Shown: positions 21,686 to 58,794 of the stretch, one piece after another | Layout of the letters: each line of letters opens with the position of its first letter | How positions within the stretch are numbered: position 1 is the first letter of the stretch | Sequence record: NC_047979.1 | Reading direction: 5' to 3' (one strand) | Source: Escherichia phage Gostya9 | DNA length: 64,000 nucleotides | The notes under the pieces: generated by a model | What the model saw: only the letters and a program-made list of their open reading frames with translations | What the model was told of the DNA's origin: nothing | The model's database searches: none | Program-made: the position numbers and the translations under genes

Positions 21686-21717
21686 AAGGGGTGGGGGCTA
21701 TGCCTCTACCCCTTTTT
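21686..21717 (+). terminator. Rho-independent terminator
   Basis: aaggggtgg / ctacccctt stem followed by ttttt. Confidence 0.55.
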
Positions 21718-21750
21718 GCATTTAGAAGGCACGAAAGCGTGCAAAGGAGA

Positions 21751-23223
21751 ATGACCTTGTTTAACGTGCAAGCTGTAGTGTTGAAGATGCTTCTAGCTTC
21801 CGAACAGAAGCAAATAGCATTGGAAACATTCTCAAAACTGCATAAAGATCATTTTAATGACGCTTTCTCCTCAATTTACCAAGCCGTCCAGAATTATTAT
21901 AAAAAATATAACACAATGCCGTCCATTGACGCACTGATGCTTGAGGCTAATAGGAACGCCCGCCTTTCTCAAGCTCTAGTCGTTTTAGCTAACACTCAAA
22001 TTCCAGAAGTTAGCATGGAACAGGCACTTGAAGTCCTAGAGGCCGAGTATACACAGGATTTATTCCTGAAGCTTCTAGAAACAGACGTGCTTCAAGATTT
22101 AACAATGCTGGATCAGGGAGAAATTCTTAACCGAGTTGCCTCCCTTCACTTAAAATTAGAAGAGAAAGTAACGAATACTGGAAAAGTATTCAACGCAGAT
22201 AACATGCGTATTTTCCAGAGAGAAGAAGATACCAAACTGAACTTAATCGCTCTTGGTATTTGTAATGAGTTCGACGCTCAAATTGGTTTAGCTCGCACAG
22301 AAACGTTACTGCTTGGTGGTTGGCGTGGTACTGGTAAATCCATTATCTGTTCAAACATACAGGTTCAGCAATATTTGAATGGAGATATTGCTCCATACTT
22401 CTCAATTGAGATGAAAGAACATGAAGTATTTAGACGTAATCTAGCTATGTTAGCTGGTGTATCAGCACTAGCAATGCGTAATAATACTCTAGAAGGTGCA
22501 GCTCTGTTGAGATTAGCCAGAACTAGAGCTAGGATGTTTAACGGTGGTGAAGAGCTTTTCGATAACTTCGTTAAACAGTACACAATGGCTAAGATGAGTG
22601 ATTTCTACGATATGGAAAGTAAGCTAATAGAAGGATATGAGCTACATACTCCTATGATTATTGTTTATGATCCTGAGCTGTCTATTACAACAGTTGACGT
22701 AGAATTAAATAAATTAGTTGCTAGATATGGGGATAAAGTTACAGTAGCTTTACTAGACTATATTAACCAAACCCGACTTCCAGACTCTAAAACCATTGAT
22801 ATGTATGACTGGAAAGAACAGATGGTTGTTAGCTCGTCTTTCAAATCTATCTGCCAGAAACATAACGTGGCTGGTGTAGCTCCTTACCAGATCGATCAAG
22901 ATGGTAGAACACGTATGTCGAAGGGGATTCTTGATTCCGCAGACATGGCTGCTAATCTTAATGCTGCAAAAGCTGATAATGGTCAAGGTGCTATTATGTT
23001 TGACTTCGTTAAGACTCGGTCTTCTGATAGCGTGAAGTTTATGCCTAAAATGAACTGGGAAACCCTGCGGATGGATAACACTACCAACCTAGCAATGGAA
23101 GATATATCTCAAATGGAAGCTGAGTTCGTTATCCCTATTGAGAAGGATAAGCCGACTCAATCTAAACGTGCTAAGAAAGACAAAGCTGAAAATTCAACAG
23201 GTGAACAGGCCAGCGATATATGA
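21751..23223 (+). CDS. DnaB-like replicative helicase
   Basis: RecA-like core with Walker A GGWRGTGKS. Start moved to ATG 21751 (aaaggaga RBS) because the track start lies inside the upstream terminator; start uncertain. Confidence 0.6.
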   Translation: MTLFNVQAVVLKMLLASEQKQIALETFSKLHKDHFNDAFSSIYQAVQNYYKKYNTMPSIDALMLEANRNARLSQALVVLANTQIPEVSMEQALEVLEAEYTQDLFLKLLETDVLQDLTMLDQGEILNRVASLHLKLEEKVTNTGKVFNADNMRIFQREEDTKLNLIALGICNEFDAQIGLARTETLLLGGWRGTGKSIICSNIQVQQYLNGDIAPYFSIEMKEHEVFRRNLAMLAGVSALAMRNNTLEGAALLRLARTRARMFNGGEELFDNFVKQYTMAKMSDFYDMESKLIEGYELHTPMIIVYDPELSITTVDVELNKLVARYGDKVTVALLDYINQTRLPDSKTIDMYDWKEQMVVSSSFKSICQKHNVAGVAPYQIDQDGRTRMSKGILDSADMAANLNAAKADNGQGAIMFDFVKTRSSDSVKFMPKMNWETLRMDNTTNLAMEDISQMEAEFVIPIEKDKPTQSKRAKKDKAENSTGEQASDI

Positions 23224-23753
23224 TAACACAGGAAAGGCTAAAAGAGTTATTTGATTACTCCCCAGTTTCTGGGGAGTTTACTAGAAAAGTATCTAGAGGT
23301 AATCAGAAAGCTGGTAGTATAATAACCAGAAAAGACTCTAACGGTTATATAATTATTGGTATAGATGGCAAGGATTACAAAGCCCATCGGATGGCTTTTC
23401 TATTTATGGAAAATACATTGCCGGAAAAAGTAGACCATGTAAACAGAATACCTTTTGATAATAGGTGGTGTAATCTAAGAGACGCCACAGCTCAGGAAAA
23501 TAGTAGAAATAAAACCGCATGTAGTAAGTCTGGATATTTGGGAGTTGCTTGGGATATCGAAAAACAAAGATGGAGAGTTCAAGTAAGAGACTCTAATAGC
23601 ACTCTTAAAAATGGTGGCAGATTTAAGTATGAAGAGCTAGAGCTAGCTGTAAATTCAGCAAATATATTAAGGACTAAGTTACATGGAGAACGTGCTGTTA
23701 TAGAAATTTTTGATACATCTAATTATCCTTCACTGGAGGAGTTAAATTCATGA
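23220..23753 (+). CDS. HNH homing endonuclease with AP2-like DNA-binding domain
   Basis: HNH core VDHVNRIPFDNRWCNLR...ENSRN and AP2-like YLGVAWDIEKQRWRVQV; ATGA start/stop overlap with the helicase. Confidence 0.7.
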   Translation: MITQERLKELFDYSPVSGEFTRKVSRGNQKAGSIITRKDSNGYIIIGIDGKDYKAHRMAFLFMENTLPEKVDHVNRIPFDNRWCNLRDATAQENSRNKTACSKSGYLGVAWDIEKQRWRVQVRDSNSTLKNGGRFKYEELELAVNSANILRTKLHGERAVIEIFDTSNYPSLEELNS

Positions 23754-24640
23754 GTCGAATAACAGAATTACTTGATCTTAAGGGAATTGAGTATAAAGAT
23801 ACTGGTGGAGATATTTTAATCTGTTGTCTAAATCCAGATCATGATGATAAACACCCAAGTTTGCGTATTGACCCTGAAACAGGTATTATGCACTGCTTGA
23901 GTTGTGGCTTCGGTAAAGGTATACCGAGCATTTACCATTATTTTAATGAGACTCAGTACCGACAGTCCCCAAGACTATCCCAAGTACGTAAAAAGATTTC
24001 AGAGATTAGAAATGGATCTACAAATCTTGCAATCCCAGAATCTGCTTTTCTTTTTGAAGGTGATTTCCGAGGTATCAGTTCTAAGACCTTAAAGAAATAT
24101 TTTGCTTTCCAACACCAAGAGGACTGGGAGGGCAGAATTGTATTCCCAATCACAGATGCTGTTGGACGCAATATCCTATTTTTGGGTCGTTCTATAAACA
24201 GTTCTGCCCCTCCTAAATACTTAGTAAAACCAAAACAAGTTTCACCACCAATTTTCCCTGTACGATATAATACTCCAGTTCTTATTCTAGTTGAAGGCAT
24301 CTTTGATATGCTGAAGCTAGAGGATAATGGTATAGACTATGCTTCCTGCTGTTTTGGTACACATCAGTTTACTTCCGATAACATTGCAGATAAGTTCAGT
24401 CCTTATATTATTGCCGGTGTAAAAGTTGTTGTTATCTTACTAGATAATGATGCTTCTGGTAATAAAGCTGCCCAGTCTCTAGCGAAGTTAATTCGTACAA
24501 AAACGCGTTTAACACCTGTAGTTGCTAACTTTCTTCTGCCTGAAGGTAAAGACCCTGGTGACTTAAATAAAGAAGAAGTCGATACGTTAGCAAAACGTAT
24601 TGAAATTTTAGTTGCTGAATCGCTTAAAGATTTGGTATAA
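23750..24640 (+). CDS. DNA primase (DnaG-like, Zn finger plus Toprim)
   Basis: CHC2 zinc finger CLNPDHDDKHPSLRIDPETGIMHCLSCG; Toprim acidic motifs (VEGIFDML, LLDNDASG). Confidence 0.8.
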   Translation: MSRITELLDLKGIEYKDTGGDILICCLNPDHDDKHPSLRIDPETGIMHCLSCGFGKGIPSIYHYFNETQYRQSPRLSQVRKKISEIRNGSTNLAIPESAFLFEGDFRGISSKTLKKYFAFQHQEDWEGRIVFPITDAVGRNILFLGRSINSSAPPKYLVKPKQVSPPIFPVRYNTPVLILVEGIFDMLKLEDNGIDYASCCFGTHQFTSDNIADKFSPYIIAGVKVVVILLDNDASGNKAAQSLAKLIRTKTRLTPVVANFLLPEGKDPGDLNKEEVDTLAKRIEILVAESLKDLV

Positions 24641-24702: not shown

Positions 24703-27700
24703 TTGAAAATTGCAGTAGTTGATAAAGCTCTAAACAACACTCGTTATGATAAACATTTCCAGCTATACGGCGAGGAAGTTGATGTATTCCATATGTGTAA
24801 CGAGAAGTTATCCGGTCGTTTGCTCAAAAAGCATATTACTATCGGGACCCCGGAAAACCCATTTGACCCGAATGATTATGATTTTGTTATACTGGTAGGT
24901 GCCGAACCTTTCCTGTACTTTGCGGGTAAGAAAGGTATTGGTGATTATACTGGTAAACGTGTAGAGTATAATGGATATGCTAACTGGATTGCTAGTATCA
25001 GCCCAGCCCAGTTACACTTTAAACCTGAAATGAAACCAGTTTTTGATGCAACAGTAGAGAGTATCCACGATATTATCAATGGTCGTGAGAAGATTGCAAA
25101 AGCTGGTGATTACCGTCCTATTACTGACCCTGATGAGGCAGAAGAATATATCAAGATGGTGTATAATATGGTTATCGGACCTGTCGCATTCGACTCCGAA
25201 ACCTCAGCACTATACTGTCGAGATGGTTATCTGCTTGGTGTTTCTATTTCTCACCAAGAGTATCAGGGTGTATATATCGATTCTGATTGTCTCACAGAGG
25301 TTGCAGTATATTATCTCCAGAAAATTCTGGATAGTGAAAACCACATTATTGTTTTTCACAACTTGAAGTTTGATATGCACTTTTATAAGTACCATCTGGG
25401 ACTTACTTTTGATAAAGCACATAAAGAACGCAGGCTCCATGATACCATGTTGCAGCACTATGTTCTAGATGAACGTCGTGGTACTCATGGCTTGAAATCT
25501 CTAGCAATGAAGTATACCGATATGGGTGACTATGACTTCGAACTAGATAAGTTCAAAGATGATTACTGCAAAGCACATAAAATCAAGAAAGAAGATTTCA
25601 CCTATGATCTGATTCCGTTTGATATTATGTGGCCATATGCATGTCTTACTCACGATTCCCAAGTTCGGATGGCTTCAGGGAATTGGAAGACTATTGGGGA
25701 ACTTGTTCGCACCAAATCTACAGAAGCTGTAGTATCATTCAACGAGTCAACTGGGCAATTTGAGAACAAACCGATTACTGGATGGTATAAAAATGAACAT
25801 AAATCCAAGCAATGGAAGAAGTTAATAGTTAAATCTCAGCAAAGAAACTCTAAGGGTACTATTAATGGGCCAGTATTTACACCAGATCATAGGGTATTAA
25901 CTCAGAATGGATACATAGAAGTCCAAGATATTATTCCAGGACAGGATAAAATCCTAACTGAAGAACTTGCTTTACCATCTGATAGTAAGCAAGTATTAAT
26001 GGCATCCCTATTTGGGGATGGTGCTCTGGTATCTAGAAATAATTGGGGCGCGGGTCTACAACTGACACAGTCAGAAGCGCATAAAGAGTATCTAGATTTT
26101 AAGGCAGCCTCTCAAGTAGAAACACCAACTCTTAGTTCCTCTACAAAAGGAGATAAAAAAGCATATACGTATAGTTTCCCCTATACCTCGGAGTATTCTG
26201 ACTTATTCTCTACCTTAGAGGTACGAGATAATACTACAAAATATAAGTTAAAAATTACTAAGAAAAATCTAGAAGGGTTAGATGAAAAAGCACTAGCTAT
26301 TTGGTATCAAGATGATGGTAACCTGCCACAAGGAAACGCACGCATTTGGTCTAGAACAGTTGCTGATTGTAAAGAAGAGCAGCAAAATTTCATAGAATGG
26401 TGTAAAAATCTAGGCATTACAGCACGCTACCATAACGATGGAGAAAATAACCAGTTCTTTGTATTAGATAATGAAGAACTATTCCCTTTGATTGCTCCAT
26501 ATATGCATAGCTCTATGGCTTACAAGGTGCCAGAAAGATTCAAGCACTTAGTAGGAACAGGAACTTGGGATTTTTCAACATCTAAGTACTACTATGCAGA
26601 AGTGTATGGGGTTGAGGATTGGGTAGTTCCAGCCTCTAGAAGAGGTTACTCTACCAGTTGGTGTATAGATGTAAAAGATAACCATAACTTTGTAACTAAA
26701 GTTGGTGTAGTTCACAACTGTAAAGATACAGATGCTACCATACGTTTGCACAACTTCTTCTTACCAAAAATTGAGAAGAATGAAAAACTTTGCAGTCTAT
26801 ATTACGATGTTCTAATGCCTGGTTGTGTATTCCTACAGCGTGTCGAAGATCGTGGTGTACCTATCTCTATTGATCGTTTGAAAGAAGCTCAGTATCAATT
26901 GACTCATAATTTGAATAAAGCCCGTGAGAAACTGTATACTTATCCAGAAGTTAAACAGCTAGAACAAGATCAGAATGAAGCATTTAACCCGAACTCTGTT
27001 AAGCAGCTGCGTGTTCTTCTGTTCGATTATGTTGGTTTGACTCCAACTGGTAAGTTAACGGATACTGGTGCAGATTCTACGGATGCAGAAGCTCTGAATG
27101 AACTGGCTACGCAGCATCCAATTGCTAAAACTCTACTAGAGATTCGTAAGCTGACTAAGCTGATCTCTACTTATGTTGAGAAGATTCTTCTGAGTATTGA
27201 TGCAGATGGTTGCATTCGTACTGGTTTCCATGAACATATGACTACTTCTGGTCGTCTGAGTTCTTCTGGTAAACTGAACCTGCAACAGCTACCTCGTGAT
27301 GAATCTATCATTAAGGGTTGTGTAGTTGCACCACCTGGATACCGTGTAATCGCATGGGACTTAACAACTGCGGAAGTTTATTATGCTGCTGTTCTATCTG
27401 GTGATAGAAATATGCAACAAGTATTTATCAACATGAGAAATGAACCCGATAAATACCCTGACTTCCACTCTAACATCGCCCACATGGTATTTAAATTGCA
27501 ATGTGAACCTCGTGATGTTAAAAAGTTATTCCCAGCTCTGCGTCAAGCAGCTAAGGCAATTACCTTTGGTATTTTGTACGGTTCTGGCCCGGCTAAAGTA
27601 GCACATTCTGTTAACGAAGCATTGCTAGAACAAGCAGCCAAAACTGGGGAACCATTTGTTGAATGTACTGTTGCAGATGCTAAAGAGTACATTGAGACTT

Positions 27701-28347
27701 ACTTTGGTCAATTCCCACAGCTTAAGCGTTGGATTGATAAGTGCCACGATCAAATCAAGAATCATGGGTTTATCTATAGTCACTTTGGTCGTAAACGTCG
27801 TCTACATAATATCCACTCTGAAGACCGTGGCGTTCAGGGTGAAGAAATTCGTTCTGGGTTTAACGCAATCATTCAGTCTGCTTCTTCTGATAGTCTCCTT
27901 TTAGGTGCTGTAGATGCAGATAATGAGATCATTTCTCTTGGCCTAGAACAAGAGATGAAGATTGTTATGCTGGTTCATGACTCCGTAGTTGCTATTGTTC
28001 GTGAAGACTTGATTGATCAATACAATGAAATTCTGATTCGTAATATTCAGAAAGACCGTGGTATCAGTATTCCTGGCTGTCCGATTGGTATTGATTCAGA
28101 TTCTGAAGCTGGAGGTTCTCGTGACTATTCTTGTGGTAAGATGAAGAAACAGCACCCATCAATCGCTTGTATTGATGATGACGAATATACTCGTTACGTT
28201 AAAGAAATGCTTCTTGATTCTGAATTCGAGTATAAGAAATTAGCTGCAATGGATAAAGAGCATCCAGATCATAGCAAATACAAGGATGATAAGTTTATTG
28301 CTGTATGTAAGGATCTGGATAACGTGAAAAGGGTTCTCGGTGCTTAA
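24703..28347 (+). CDS. Family A DNA polymerase with 3'-5' exonuclease domain, interrupted in-frame by an intein
   Basis: Exo I VAFDSETSALY; pol motif B RQAAKAITFGILYGSG; motif C LVHDSVV. 1214 aa in total; 855 aa once the 359-aa intein is removed. TTG start with aagaggaga RBS. Confidence 0.9.
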   Translation: MKIAVVDKALNNTRYDKHFQLYGEEVDVFHMCNEKLSGRLLKKHITIGTPENPFDPNDYDFVILVGAEPFLYFAGKKGIGDYTGKRVEYNGYANWIASISPAQLHFKPEMKPVFDATVESIHDIINGREKIAKAGDYRPITDPDEAEEYIKMVYNMVIGPVAFDSETSALYCRDGYLLGVSISHQEYQGVYIDSDCLTEVAVYYLQKILDSENHIIVFHNLKFDMHFYKYHLGLTFDKAHKERRLHDTMLQHYVLDERRGTHGLKSLAMKYTDMGDYDFELDKFKDDYCKAHKIKKEDFTYDLIPFDIMWPYACLTHDSQVRMASGNWKTIGELVRTKSTEAVVSFNESTGQFENKPITGWYKNEHKSKQWKKLIVKSQQRNSKGTINGPVFTPDHRVLTQNGYIEVQDIIPGQDKILTEELALPSDSKQVLMASLFGDGALVSRNNWGAGLQLTQSEAHKEYLDFKAASQVETPTLSSSTKGDKKAYTYSFPYTSEYSDLFSTLEVRDNTTKYKLKITKKNLEGLDEKALAIWYQDDGNLPQGNARIWSRTVADCKEEQQNFIEWCKNLGITARYHNDGENNQFFVLDNEELFPLIAPYMHSSMAYKVPERFKHLVGTGTWDFSTSKYYYAEVYGVEDWVVPASRRGYSTSWCIDVKDNHNFVTKVGVVHNCKDTDATIRLHNFFLPKIEKNEKLCSLYYDVLMPGCVFLQRVEDRGVPISIDRLKEAQYQLTHNLNKAREKLYTYPEVKQLEQDQNEAFNPNSVKQLRVLLFDYVGLTPTGKLTDTGADSTDAEALNELATQHPIAKTLLEIRKLTKLISTYVEKILLSIDADGCIRTGFHEHMTTSGRLSSSGKLNLQQLPRDESIIKGCVVAPPGYRVIAWDLTTAEVYYAAVLSGDRNMQQVFINMRNEPDKYPDFHSNIAHMVFKLQCEPRDVKKLFPALRQAAKAITFGILYGSGPAKVAHSVNEALLEQAAKTGEPFVECTVADAKEYIETYFGQFPQLKRWIDKCHDQIKNHGFIYSHFGRKRRLHNIHSEDRGVQGEEIRSGFNAIIQSASSDSLLLGAVDADNEIISLGLEQEMKIVMLVHDSVVAIVREDLIDQYNEILIRNIQKDRGISIPGCPIGIDSDSEAGGSRDYSCGKMKKQHPSIACIDDDEYTRYVKEMLLDSEFEYKKLAAMDKEHPDHSKYKDDKFIAVCKDLDNVKRVLGA
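25642..26718 (+). mobile_element. Intein with LAGLIDADG homing endonuclease inside the DNA polymerase
   Basis: Block A CLTHDSQVRMASG begins at Cys; block B FTPDHRVL; two LAGLIDADG motifs (LMASLFGDGAL, LAIWYQDDGNL); blocks F/G VKDNHNFVTKVGVVHN followed by +1 Cys (CKDTDA). Confidence 0.85.
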
Positions 28348-57128: not shown

Positions 57129-58342
57129 TCTTTATCTCCCTCGGTGGAACCTTGAGGTCTACCACCTTCTTGACCAGATACACCTGTTGCAGAACCAGCA
57201 ACGTTAGCAGGAATACGAATCCTATTCATCTGCTCATCATCTAAAGGTTCAAGGTTCAGCTCTAAACGAGCTTCGTTACCAGTCATAATACCATTATTAA
57301 CCAATGAGGTTAAATGTTTAGCCTCAGCTTCTTTATCTGGTGTTAATGCAGCTACCTCCTTAGTATTAGGGGTAATCCTATAACCAAAAAAGAAAGTAAG
57401 AGAACTAGTCAGTTTGTTCAGCATAGGAATGATAGTCATATAATAGAACAATTCGATGTTTGGTCGAATATTCGCATTATTACCACCATCAATCAGTACT
57501 TGCGGAACACCAAAGGCTAGACAGATAGATTTATTAAATCCTGCGATGTCTTCCTTAAAGTCTAGATCTTTAAAAGAGGATATTTGGGAGTACGGTTTAG
57601 CTTTCATACCACCATCTAGAATCAGGACAGAAGACTGACCCGTACTAGGATTATAATCGAGTTGTAATTCTTCTTGTTTACGCTCACGCAATTTCTTGTT
57701 CAGGATTTCATCCGTTTCAAGAATAAGACCAATCACGGTTCCGTTATCTAGGAACTTCTCTTTAAAGTTAAGCATTTTAGAACGCTTCTCAAGAGAATCA
57801 ATAACAGTAGCAACACGAGATTGTCCAGAAATTTGAGAATTTGTGCCACACACGTAACTGTTATCCTTTATAAAGATAATCTCATCTACGCGATAGTTTA
57901 TCTGATTATTAAATATAAATTTTTTGATAAACTTATTGGCATCTGCCTCGACCTGCATAAGAGCGGCCGGGACGTGGTAAAGCGATGTGCCATCCCAATA
58001 GATGTATGCACAACCCTCAAAAAGTAGGTCAGTGACTACAAGTCTACGGAATGTGCTTATATCCATGAATGGATTAGGTCGTACATTTAAGAGAGTGTCT
58101 AGAGTCTTTGTTTTGACGCCATTAGCGTACGTAACAATATTATATTTATCTCCGACAGTATAAGAACACTCCGCCGCACTATCTATAACCATATTGGCAG
58201 TTCGATTGAGAATCTCAATCTTGCTATAGGCTTGTCCAGTGGTAAAAGGCTTACGGTTAGTGCGATGACTAACTGGTTCCATGTCTCTTATAATACGTTG
58301 ACCCGGATTTAGCTTTTCAGTAATCCAGCTTTTAAAACCCAT
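57125..58342 (-). CDS. Portal protein
   Basis: 405 aa directly downstream of terminase/HNH and upstream of the protease. Confidence 0.7.
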   Translation of the reverse strand: MGFKSWITEKLNPGQRIIRDMEPVSHRTNRKPFTTGQAYSKIEILNRTANMVIDSAAECSYTVGDKYNIVTYANGVKTKTLDTLLNVRPNPFMDISTFRRLVVTDLLFEGCAYIYWDGTSLYHVPAALMQVEADANKFIKKFIFNNQINYRVDEIIFIKDNSYVCGTNSQISGQSRVATVIDSLEKRSKMLNFKEKFLDNGTVIGLILETDEILNKKLRERKQEELQLDYNPSTGQSSVLILDGGMKAKPYSQISSFKDLDFKEDIAGFNKSICLAFGVPQVLIDGGNNANIRPNIELFYYMTIIPMLNKLTSSLTFFFGYRITPNTKEVAALTPDKEAEAKHLTSLVNNGIMTGNEARLELNLEPLDDEQMNRIRIPANVAGSATGVSGQEGGRPQGSTEGDKE

Positions 58343-58794
58343 TATAAGAACCTTGCGAATCCTGATTTTGTTTCAGTCTTGACTTGTGTCTTTTCTTGAG
58401 GATTCTGTAATTTGTCTTTCTGCTTTTGAACCCATGCTTTCTGTTTATCAGCAGAAAATAATGGAGGTTCTTTCGTGTAAACCTTATGTAGTAATTGGTG
58501 ATGGTGCTGGCACAATGTTACCACGTCCCTAACTAACTCATGCTCATATTTCTTGTAGAATGCTTCCCTATTTGAAAGGACGATATTCTCATCAGTGAAA
58601 TCCAGCTGGAGTTCTTTAGCAAATTTTTTTATTAGCTGAGATATAGTATGATAATGGTGAAGTTCTAGGTCTTCACTACTACCACATATAGCACAGCAAC
58701 CATCCTTACTATACCTAGATTTTATACCATCCCTCATTATAGAAATGGCATCACGTTTGTACTTAGTATTAGTGGCCATAATCCTCCAATCCAA
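58342..58794 (-). CDS. HNH endonuclease, terminase-associated
   Basis: CAICGSSEDLELHHYH...LCQHHHQLLH HNH/Zn motifs; 150 aa; between terminase and portal. Confidence 0.75.
   Translation of the reverse strand: MDWRIMATNTKYKRDAISIMRDGIKSRYSKDGCCAICGSSEDLELHHYHTISQLIKKFAKELQLDFTDENIVLSNREAFYKKYEHELVRDVVTLCQHHHQLLHKVYTKEPPLFSADKQKAWVQKQKDKLQNPQEKTQVKTETKSGFARFL

Follow-up and report, generated by a model that had tools for sequence, protein, structure and literature searches.

HNH enzymes of the I-HmuI type are nickases, and I-HmuI itself cuts within a few bp of its intron insertion site. Free-standing homing endonucleases have a different genomic setting. In phage T4, MobE, SegF, and SegG are encoded by promoter-less cassettes that lie between conserved genes and are carried on an existing polycistronic message; each has its target in a conserved gene next to it, and homing co-converts the flanking markers (PMC2988022). 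HNH-AP2 homing endonucleases have been described in bacteria and phages (Magnani et al., 2004; Wessler, 2005; both as cited in PMC5714182), and it is mainly in their variable HNH genes that T5-like phages differ in gene content (PMC10644984).

The window analysed in this study, a stretch of 64,000 nucleotides from Escherichia phage Gostya9 (NC_047979.1), comes from a T5-like phage, and its 177-aa ORF between helicase and primase is T5 hegJ; therefore, the feature was already known. The ORF shares 97.6% nucleotide identity with T5 hegJ (T5.120, YP_006948.1, "putative H-N-H-endonuclease P-TflX", NC_005859 69614-70147), with 3 amino acid differences, and the T5 gene likewise runs from ATGA to ATGA between the D6 helicase and the primase, next to the same recoded primase haplotype. 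No material difference separates both genes, and the T5 annotation was made by sequence similarity only. Searches of the accessible literature for biochemical or genetic experiments on hegJ found none. The gene call adds nothing, as hegJ has long been annotated in the T5 reference genome and the HNH-AP2 architecture has been described. What is new is a hairpin in the primase gene of gene-less relatives, together with its silent recoding in every carrier examined.

The hegJ gene and its product

The features of the locus, and two further nuclease genes of the window, are as follows:

21691-23223, + strand: DnaB-like replicative helicase gene (T5 D6), upstream neighbour (Pfam DnaB_C, PHROG 19)
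23220-23753, + strand: hegJ-type free-standing HNH-AP2 endonuclease gene, ATG start, 177 aa (ORF list)
23220-23749 (equivalently 23224-23753), + strand: 530-bp cassette, from alignments of occupied and empty junctions
23220-23369, + strand: N-terminal module, aa 1-50, with an ITQERLKEL...TG.FT motif and beta strands
23376-23507, + strand: HNH_3 (His-Me finger) catalytic core, aa 53-96 (Pfam, PHROG)
23529-23693, + strand: divergent AP2 DNA-binding domain, aa ~104-158, three strands and a long helix (family profile, structure model)
23735-23741, + strand: GGAGGAG, putative Shine-Dalgarno sequence within the cassette's 3' end and 8 nt upstream of the primase start codon
23750-24640, + strand: DnaG-type primase gene, downstream neighbour and presumed target gene (Zn_ribbon_DnaG, DNAG_N, Toprim; PHROG 47)
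23756-23830, + strand: silently recoded primase 5' tract (primase nt 7-81 in the window), protein unchanged, linked to the cassette
23797-23829, + strand: site at which gene-less relatives encode the conserved primase hairpin (primase nt 48-80), lost here through recoding; predicted target region
829-1602, - strand: GIY-YIG ORF, I-TevI-like
58342-58794, - strand: terminase-side HNH gene, between portal and terminase; sciA in relatives

The preliminary description had proposed an HNH-AP2 protein overlapping the helicase stop and the primase start, and both the ORF list and the sequence bear this out: the hegJ ATG shares an ATGA with the helicase stop codon (23220-23223), and its TGA shares another with the primase ATG (23750-23753). 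The identity given to the two neighbours agrees with their Pfam and PHROG profiles. Profile searches also recovered the HNH domain, residues 53-96 matching Pfam HNH_3 (PF13392) above its cut-off (E=6.3e-8, 32.6 bits, cut-off 24.8) and the protein matching PHROG 99 "HNH endonuclease" (E=4e-57). The HNH_3 match is present in 65/65 HegJ homologs, the family-invariant residues H73, N85, and N97 are all retained, and the core has a beta-beta-alpha metal-finger fold with conserved His and Asn residues.

The proposed AP2 domain was recovered less directly. Pfam AP2 (PF00847) scored 14.9-16 bits on HegJ, isolated C-terminal half included, against a gathering threshold of 33.3 that is reached by no T5-clade protein on its own; because this model stays below threshold, the domain was assigned from the family profile together with the structure model. 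Indeed, 39 of the 65 full-length homologs match Pfam AP2 directly (best 7e-13), the HegJ family profile (positions 93-159) matches WRI1 at 1.2e-9 and TEM1 at 1.3e-5, and the region is modelled as a three-stranded sheet with one helix packed against it. The structure model, a confident one, matches I-HmuI in its fold, and by this analogy the N-terminal module is presumed to contact DNA. Family profile and model together show that HegJ joins an I-HmuI-like nuclease to an AP2 domain; its endonuclease activity is predicted.

The gene is under strong purifying selection, with dN/dS values of 0.04-0.08 against close alleles within a class and 0.2-0.3 between allele classes. The 15 alleles examined are all full length (176-177 aa), and dS among alleles reaches 0.35-1.0. 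Regarding expression, an own promoter or terminator of the cassette was rejected: the promoter scan gave 10 promoter-like sites vs. 9.3 expected by shuffling, and the T5 annotation places no promoter at the gene. At the position of the GGAGGAG sequence, empty-site genomes have only a weak match upstream of the primase. A weak terminator-like hairpin lies inside the ORF at 23379-23398. A 9-bp hairpin in the ORF at 23257-23277, whose stem is conserved while its loop varies, was rejected as a regulatory element: its 101-nt fold has only z=-1.84 and its arms encode the conserved motif P.TG.F.

Four selfish nuclease elements had been counted in the window. hegJ, the GIY-YIG gene, and the LAGLIDADG_2 intein carried by the polymerase stand, whereas the terminase-side HNH gene is the conserved nickase gene sciA: DT57C and other relatives have it annotated as "nicking site-specific endonuclease", and its locus is occupied across relatives. 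The elements are thus three and not four. A group I intron that would hold the GIY-YIG ORF and split thyA was considered and discarded: Rfam finds nothing at E<=0.01, thyA is intact (277-aa ORF), and the 77-bp shared piece corresponds to the downstream terminator region.

Distribution of the cassette and recoding of the primase

The span of the helicase-primase junction is 1004 bp in empty genomes and 1534 bp in occupied ones, exactly 530 bp shorter in the former; since ATGA occurs at either end of the cassette, its boundary can be placed only to within 4 bp. Synteny at the junction reveals an optional insertion, occupied in 70/545 junction matches (~70 among ~445 related T5-like phage records, most of them empty), counts that are inflated by RefSeq/GenBank duplicates and drawn from genomes that are not phylogenetically independent. 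DT57C is among the genomes without the gene, giving a one-piece match to the empty junction. An initial whole-junction megablast had placed hegJ in 421/443 relatives, an artefact of an 80% coverage cut-off applied to a query of which the gene makes up only 18%; it was corrected with a tighter junction query. Carriers belong to Tequintavirus and to Epseptimavirus (JNwz02, polluks), and the flanks of JNwz02 match its hegJ-less relatives Sepoy and sal2. hegJ is a precise insertion polymorphism spread across two genera. The earlier reading of the gene as a free-standing homing endonuclease between replication genes is supported, with activity and homing predicted from sequence.

Occupied and empty genomes differ on one side of the insertion. 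Over primase nt 1-120 the divergence between them is 12-14%, compared with 1.4-2.3% among empty sites, all of it synonymous, with fixed differences at nt 51, 66, and 69, whereas 1400 bp of helicase contain zero fixed differences. This asymmetry is weaker evidence than it appears, because the final ~60 nt of the helicase are invariant in all genomes and co-conversion on that side would be invisible. At least 8 recoded haplotypes occur in occupied genomes, with differing replacement bases at nt 30, 42, 57, 60, 69, 72, and 81, and recombination visibly shuffles primase haplotypes and HNH allele classes. Nevertheless, the cassette and the recoded hairpin tract are completely linked: the empty-type tract is found in no occupied record and the window-type tract in no empty record, so that carriers differ from gene-less genomes at this putative target without exception. 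Queried with a chimera of the HNH end and empty-type primase, the best occupied record was only 93.1% identical; with the reciprocal chimera (empty junction and window-type primase), all those at >=95% among the matches listed were two-piece, i.e., occupied. In JNwz02, HZ_ZJUN2, NR01, and PH204, the first 41-50 primase nt, next to the insertion, keep the empty-type sequence, and recoding is confined to nt 42/51-84. The divergence of the tract is comparable to that of hegJ alleles (dS 0.35-1.0), and the tract could therefore be ancient linked donor DNA.

In all ~22 empty T5-like IMG/VR loci, the corresponding primase segment forms a 14-bp hairpin of -19.4 kcal/mol. Only 2-6 of 10,000 synonymous recodings are as stable (P=0.0002-0.0006). 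All IMG/VR contigs with the exact hairpin have empty sites (19/19), and none of 9 occupied contigs contains it; a scan of IMG/VR with the exact 31-mer returned only contigs already in the set and no further genomes. Sugarlandvirus keeps the hairpin with a compensatory A54G/U73C pair, and Providencia-type phages have an analogous one in a shifted register. Empty-site sequences are almost invariant, and support for the structure consists of this one compensatory pair, the Providencia-type analogue, and the recoding null. A conserved hairpin in the 5' coding region of the primase, strongly non-random and previously unremarked, is described here for T5-like, Sugarlandvirus, and Providencia-type phages. 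My1-like relatives have neither hairpin nor hegJ, and carry similar AT-rich codons at the recoded sites. In occupied genomes the region folds at -4 to -13, except in SHSML-45/H8 (two near-identical records of one lineage), which reaches -19.6 from a different sequence and appears to have rebuilt the hairpin; APCEc03 (-9.7) and HdH2 (-12.0) are possible intermediates toward such a rebuilt structure.

Proposed homing and rival explanations

hegJ is likely to encode a free-standing homing endonuclease that lacks a promoter of its own and has its target in the recoded primase segment; the recoding would provide self-immunity and travel with the gene. The helicase would supply the transcript, HegJ translation would be coupled to the helicase stop codon, and the displaced primase would be served by the strong GGAGG ribosome-binding site of the cassette. 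In a cell infected by both a carrier and a gene-less T5-like phage, HegJ would nick or cut the gene-less genome ~50-80 bp downstream of the empty site, within the segment encoding the conserved hairpin and adjoining the zinc-ribbon cysteines. Repair by recombination with the carrier genome would then copy in the cassette and the adjoining recoded tract, a process equivalent to the "intronless homing" of the T4 seg/mob genes. The immunity proposed for carriers follows from the silent recoding of their primase tract. From these data we infer that HegJ cleaves, whether by a nick or a double-strand break, where exactly its target lies, and in which direction transfer runs. The hairpin recoded at the primase start probably marks the HegJ cut site, with a predicted target of ~30 bp, in its empty-type form GACACAGGTGGGGACATCCTCATCTGTTGTC (primase nt 49-79).

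More tentatively, HegJ may have homed onto a doubly constrained segment, the mobile unit being the gene plus a ~80-bp recoded, hairpin-less stretch, with at least one lineage (SHSML-45/H8) having rebuilt the hairpin. Gene-less phages could not easily mutate such a target, because zinc-ribbon-proximal codons and an mRNA (or DNA) hairpin both constrain it. If true, a selfish nuclease and a structural RNA element would be visibly engaged in an arms race inside an essential replication gene.

Several observations would also fit a homing endonuclease with its target at or across the ATGA junction, the recoded tract being hitch-hiking old donor sequence or the result of drift once the Shine-Dalgarno sequence of the cassette made the hairpin dispensable. 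Insertion at the ATGA would itself disrupt a junction-spanning target, a strong Shine-Dalgarno sequence for the primase is supplied by the cassette, and the synonymous saturation of the tract matches the deep divergence of hegJ alleles. Moreover, most occupied haplotypes fold with energies typical of random recodings, and the My1-like relatives show similar codons without hairpin and gene. This alternative is nonetheless unlikely, given that not one of the ~70 occupied records breaks the linkage, despite the recombination that shuffles haplotypes. Furthermore, the pattern of JNwz02, HZ_ZJUN2, NR01, and PH204 is unexpected from a simple co-conversion gradient starting at the junction, differing bases at identical sites point to repeated independent hits, and the equally stable hairpin of SHSML-45/H8 speaks for a continuing use of the structure in carriers.

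A domesticated nuclease benefiting the phage, either by degrading or excluding competing T5-like genomes or through a role in replication or recombination, is distinctly improbable: ~85% of close relatives lack hegJ, with helicase and primase directly coupled, and the gene is thus dispensable. Strong purifying selection and the embedding of hegJ in the replication operon, to which it would be translationally coupled, are in line with such a role, and T-even phages offer documented cases in which homing endonucleases cause marker exclusion (PMC2988022); competitive exclusion, however, is the same molecular act as homing and cannot separate the two readings. Retention of H73, N85, and N97, dN/dS values of 0.04-0.08, full length in all 15 alleles inspected, and a confident structure model make a decaying, inactive remnant very improbable, an idea with nothing specific in its favour beyond the general tendency of such genes to decay when they have become fixed or immune. 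The fold of HegJ matches the I-HmuI-type HNH enzymes, which are nickases, and the protein might on that ground be considered for the characteristic single-strand nicks of T5 virion DNA. T5-like phages do carry site-specific nicks (PMC10644984). This assignment is barely credible and is effectively refuted by the distribution of hegJ, missing from DT57C and most T5-like phages, and by the separate HNH gene sciA at the portal-terminase locus (58342-58794, - strand), which is occupied across relatives.

Homing of this kind would also have practical consequences. In the engineering of T5-like phages, hegJ+ and hegJ- phages may recombine non-neutrally around replication genes, and the predicted target comes with natural recoded, presumably resistant variants and, for T5, natural hegJ- partners (DT57C, chee24-type).

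Comparison with known systems

I-HmuI of Bacillus phage SPO1 (PDB 1U3E) is an intron-encoded HNH nicking endonuclease, whereas hegJ is free-standing; the C-terminal DNA-binding part of I-HmuI is not AP2, in contrast to that of HegJ, and the predicted HegJ target lies ~50-80 bp from the insertion, unlike that of I-HmuI. With the described HNH-AP2 homing endonucleases, HegJ has in common the HNH_3 plus AP2 architecture, the AP2 domain of the T5 clade being too divergent for Pfam. [quoted passage not shown] Compared with the T4 endonucleases, in which Segs are GIY-YIG and Mobs are HNH proteins with other C-terminal domains, hegJ encodes an HNH-AP2 protein. Cleavage by the T4-type enzymes has been demonstrated, and their sites are reported to lie hundreds to thousands of bp away; cleavage by HegJ is predicted, at a distance of tens of bp from the gene.

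The hegJ gene and the domains of its product

More than 400 records of T5-like phages (Demerecviridae, Markadamsvirinae) match the helicase-primase region of the window at 92-98% identity. T5-like helicase/primase/polymerase sequence (90-96% identity) was also found in OR848168, OR847493 and OR849157 ("Listeria phage LM ...") and in MG065642 ("Campylobacter phage A148"), which are probably mislabelled or contaminated entries. As the preliminary description had it, a 177-aa ORF is wedged between the helicase and primase genes through ATGA overlaps, both of which are read in the sequence: its start overlaps the stop of a 510-aa ORF encoding a DnaB-like helicase (23220-23223), and its stop overlaps the start of a 296-aa ORF encoding a DnaG-type primase with CHC2 zinc ribbon and Toprim domain (23750-23753). 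The ORF is slightly AT-richer than the helicase gene (GC about 0.36 versus 0.39-0.43). Since the T5 reference has hegJ/T5.120, "putative H-N-H-endonuclease P-TflX", at the same position (97.6% nucleotide identity), the feature is already annotated and hence already known, and the HNH-AP2 endonuclease gene is almost certainly orthologous to hegJ. No experimental work on hegJ was found in a literature search.

Nuclease elements of the window
23220-23753, + strand: hegJ-type ORF, ATG start, 177 aa
829-1602, - strand: GIY-YIG ORF, I-TevI-like (GIY-YIG, NUMOD3, I-TevI DNA-binding domain)
24703-28347, + strand: DNA polymerase with LAGLIDADG_2 intein (about 25669-26718), 1214 aa versus 855 aa in T5
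58342-58794, - strand: terminase-side HNH (sciA), 150-aa zinc-finger HNH ORF (CxxC...HH...CxxHH) between portal and terminase

Profile searches bore out the HNH half of the HNH-AP2 assignment directly: Pfam HNH_3 matched residues 53-96 (32.6 bits versus a curated threshold of 24.8), and PHROG 99 "HNH endonuclease" matched the entire protein (E=4e-57). The AP2 half fell below the Pfam threshold (15-16 bits versus 33.3), even with the C-terminal half alone, and was recovered by independent lines. Of 83 homologs found in the database, many that are full-length and 40-50% identical have AP2 plus HNH_3, and 39 of the 65 aligned homologs matched Pfam AP2 at E<=1e-3 (best 7e-13). In the profile of these 65 sequences, C-terminal positions matched AP2 domains of solved structure, those of WRI1 (1.2e-9) and TEM1 (1.3e-5), and positions 37-118 matched I-HmuI (7e-8), which nicks DNA. 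The family-invariant residues H73, N85 and N97 are all present in the hegJ of the window. Domain matches, family profile and invariant residues therefore define a predicted I-HmuI-like nuclease with a divergent AP2 domain, an architecture described for His-Me group 2 (PMC5714182).

Two structures were observed nearby. Between the D5-like gene and the helicase gene, at 21686-21714 (+), a 13-bp GC-rich stem with a T-run after it makes a terminator-like element. As this element overlaps the GTG assigned mechanically as start of the helicase ORF, translation of the helicase probably begins further downstream, as the T5 annotation has it. Within hegJ, a perfect 9-bp hairpin at 23257-23277 (+), ACUCCCCAG-UUU-CUGGGGAGU, keeps its stem among alleles while its loop varies (TTT, GAA, AAA); its arms encode a conserved P.TG.F motif, and its fold in context was not significant (z=-1.84).

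Junction polymorphism and other nuclease elements

The synteny comparison proposed earlier revealed hegJ to be optional. A 1534-bp junction query matched 545 records, with full coverage in only 70 (counts that cover related genomes, without phylogenetic correction), and most other matches consisted of two pieces spanning exactly 1004 bp, i.e., 530 bp shorter. In the alignment, empty sites read ...GCGATATATGA|GTAGAATAAC..., with the helicase stop directly overlapping the primase start, and occupied sites carry the 530-bp insert, bounded by ATGA on either side. Neither a promoter scan nor the T5 annotation gave evidence of a promoter belonging to the cassette. The cassette takes over the initiation context that originally belonged to the primase, and includes GGAGGAG at 23735-23741, 8 nt before the displaced primase ATG. 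Occupied genomes were found in Tequintavirus and Epseptimavirus (JNwz02, polluks), and the helicase flank of JNwz02 matches its empty Epseptimavirus relatives.

All alleles examined encode 176-177 aa and fall into at least three classes by amino acid identity to the window (>=94%, ~82% and ~64%); dN/dS is 0.04-0.08 among alleles of the close class and 0.2-0.3 in comparisons with the other classes. Comparison of window positions 23220-23309 and 23550-23670 with three other alleles (L004, L017, L021) revealed mosaicism, as alleles that are ~65% identical elsewhere, and of different classes, have the same first 90 nt. The ~82% class differs mainly in the AP2 region, and the polluks/JLBYU43 allele departs from that of the window almost exclusively in this DNA-recognition part, which suggests an exchange of modules or rapidly evolving specificity.

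Published work names HNH homing endonuclease genes as the chief source of variation in gene content between T5-like phages (PMC10644984; PMC12639943). Four selfish elements had been counted in the window, and three of them stand. The GIY-YIG ORF is free-standing: it follows an intact thyA (1599-2432, -), whose stop it overlaps, and no group I intron was detected by Rfam at this locus; at megablast level the region is common to only one other record, Escherichia phage SelmaRatti, other relatives matching only a 77-bp terminator region downstream. The polymerase intein (CLTHDS... to ...VVHNC) is restricted to 6 of the 417 records of related phages, among them Salmonella phage Kenya-K36. The terminase-side HNH, without a Pfam match at E<=1e-3, is annotated as sciA, a nicking site-specific endonuclease, in DT57C and other relatives, and its locus is occupied across relatives; it was therefore rejected as a mobile element, so that the window has three optional nuclease elements and one resident nickase. 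That sciA annotation belongs to the portal-terminase gene also led us to reject hegJ as the T5 nickase.

The recoded primase tract and a hairpin in gene-less relatives

Flanks were compared first between 7 occupied and 6 empty genomes, then between 15 and 6. No fixed difference was found across 1400 bp of helicase, and primase nt 1-120 diverged by 12-14% between groups versus 1.4-2.3% among empty genomes. All differences within nt 7-84 are synonymous, residues 1-28 being identical in all compared genomes except polluks (E14D). Positions 51, 66 and 69 are fixed differences, and the replacement bases vary among at least 8 occupied haplotypes (nt 30 T/A, 42 G/T, 57 C/A/G, 60 A/T, 69 A/T, 72 A/T, 81 A/G/T). 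In four occupied genomes the 41-50 nt adjoining the insertion are empty-type, and recoding is limited to nt 42/51-84. Linkage was tested collection-wide with two chimeric queries, each joining a junction piece to a primase start of the opposite type. With empty junction and window-type primase, 42/42 listed records at >=95% identity were two-piece (occupied), the first one-piece (empty) record appearing at 92.2%; the HNH 3' end with empty-type primase was covered by 70 records, the best 93.1% identical. Thus, no occupied record had empty-type sequence and no empty record had window-type sequence.

When an RNA-level reason for conservation of the empty-type sequence was sought, nt 48-80 of the primase gene in empty genomes were found to fold into a hairpin immediately ahead of the zinc-ribbon cysteines; its 14-bp stem has a single bulge and its loop is ACAU (nt 40-90, -19.4 kcal/mol).

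Primase hairpin in loci of relatives
L002 (chee24), 2048-2080; L005 (Klebsiella IME260), ~2051-2083; L053 (Providencia-type): primase hairpin, equivalent to window 23797-23829

In Klebsiella Sugarlandvirus, ~70% identical overall, a compensatory A54G/U73C pair together with a C51U wobble preserves it (-22.7; 150-nt z=-4.36). An 11-bp hairpin of shifted register (-16.5) occupies the corresponding position in Providencia-type phages, whose primase is 57% identical; My1-like and more distant relatives have no such hairpin. Among 5000 synonymous recodings of the same peptide (mean -7.9 +/- 2.5 kcal/mol), the share that reached -19.4 was just 0.02% under codon-usage weighting and 0.06% under uniform codon choice, so the hairpin is far more stable than chance (P about 2-6e-4). 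It might serve translation control or RNA processing, or act as a signal at the DNA level. In IMG/VR, all ~22 empty T5-like loci have it, and the exact 31-mer occurs in 19 contigs, 19/19 empty; the 40-nt segment of occupied loci folds at -4.4 to -6.7 in 7/9 and at -12.4 in 2/9. In the window itself, the fold is no stronger than in shuffled sequences (z=+0.83). SHSML-45 and H8, a single occupied lineage, reach -19.6 via a different hairpin made of changed bases, subsets of which occur in APCEc03 (-9.7) and HdH2 (-12.0).

In one record, Salmonella phage misterkot (NC_102108; locus L014, 2094 onward), a 368-bp frame-breaking deletion of primase nt 36-403 begins 6 nt ahead of the first variant site associated with the HNH gene and takes out hairpin and zinc ribbon; a repair scar, a defective genome and an assembly error are all conceivable explanations.

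Mobility and alternative readings

Very likely, hegJ spreads by homing or did so until recently. The dN/dS values contradict the idea of a decaying remnant; a domesticated nuclease with a beneficial role is conceivable but improbable, hegJ being dispensable in ~85% of relatives. We lean towards a target within primase nt ~40-85, where the enzyme would either nick, as I-HmuI does, or make a double-strand break. With the cleavage site inside the recoded tract, complete gene-tract linkage would be expected, as intronless homing predicts, because the stretch from hegJ to the cut would always be co-converted during repair and a carrier whose own site stayed sensitive would be cut by its own enzyme. 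The hairpin would account for the invariance of the site in gene-less phages, and hence for its being a good target. The main rival keeps homing and places the cut at the junction, the recoded tract being linked old donor DNA or drift. The rebuilt SHSML-45/H8 hairpin, from one lineage, suggests that carriers still benefit from the structure and speaks against a mere relaxation of constraint. The specific target prediction within the primase gene and the conserved hairpin slightly raise the interest of hegJ.

The initial proposal of a free-standing homing endonuclease inserted between replication genes, one of a known kind, is supported by the insertion polymorphism, distribution across two genera, promoter-less in-operon design and purifying selection, all of which agree with "intronless homing", a model worked out on the seg and mob genes of T4 (PMC2988022).
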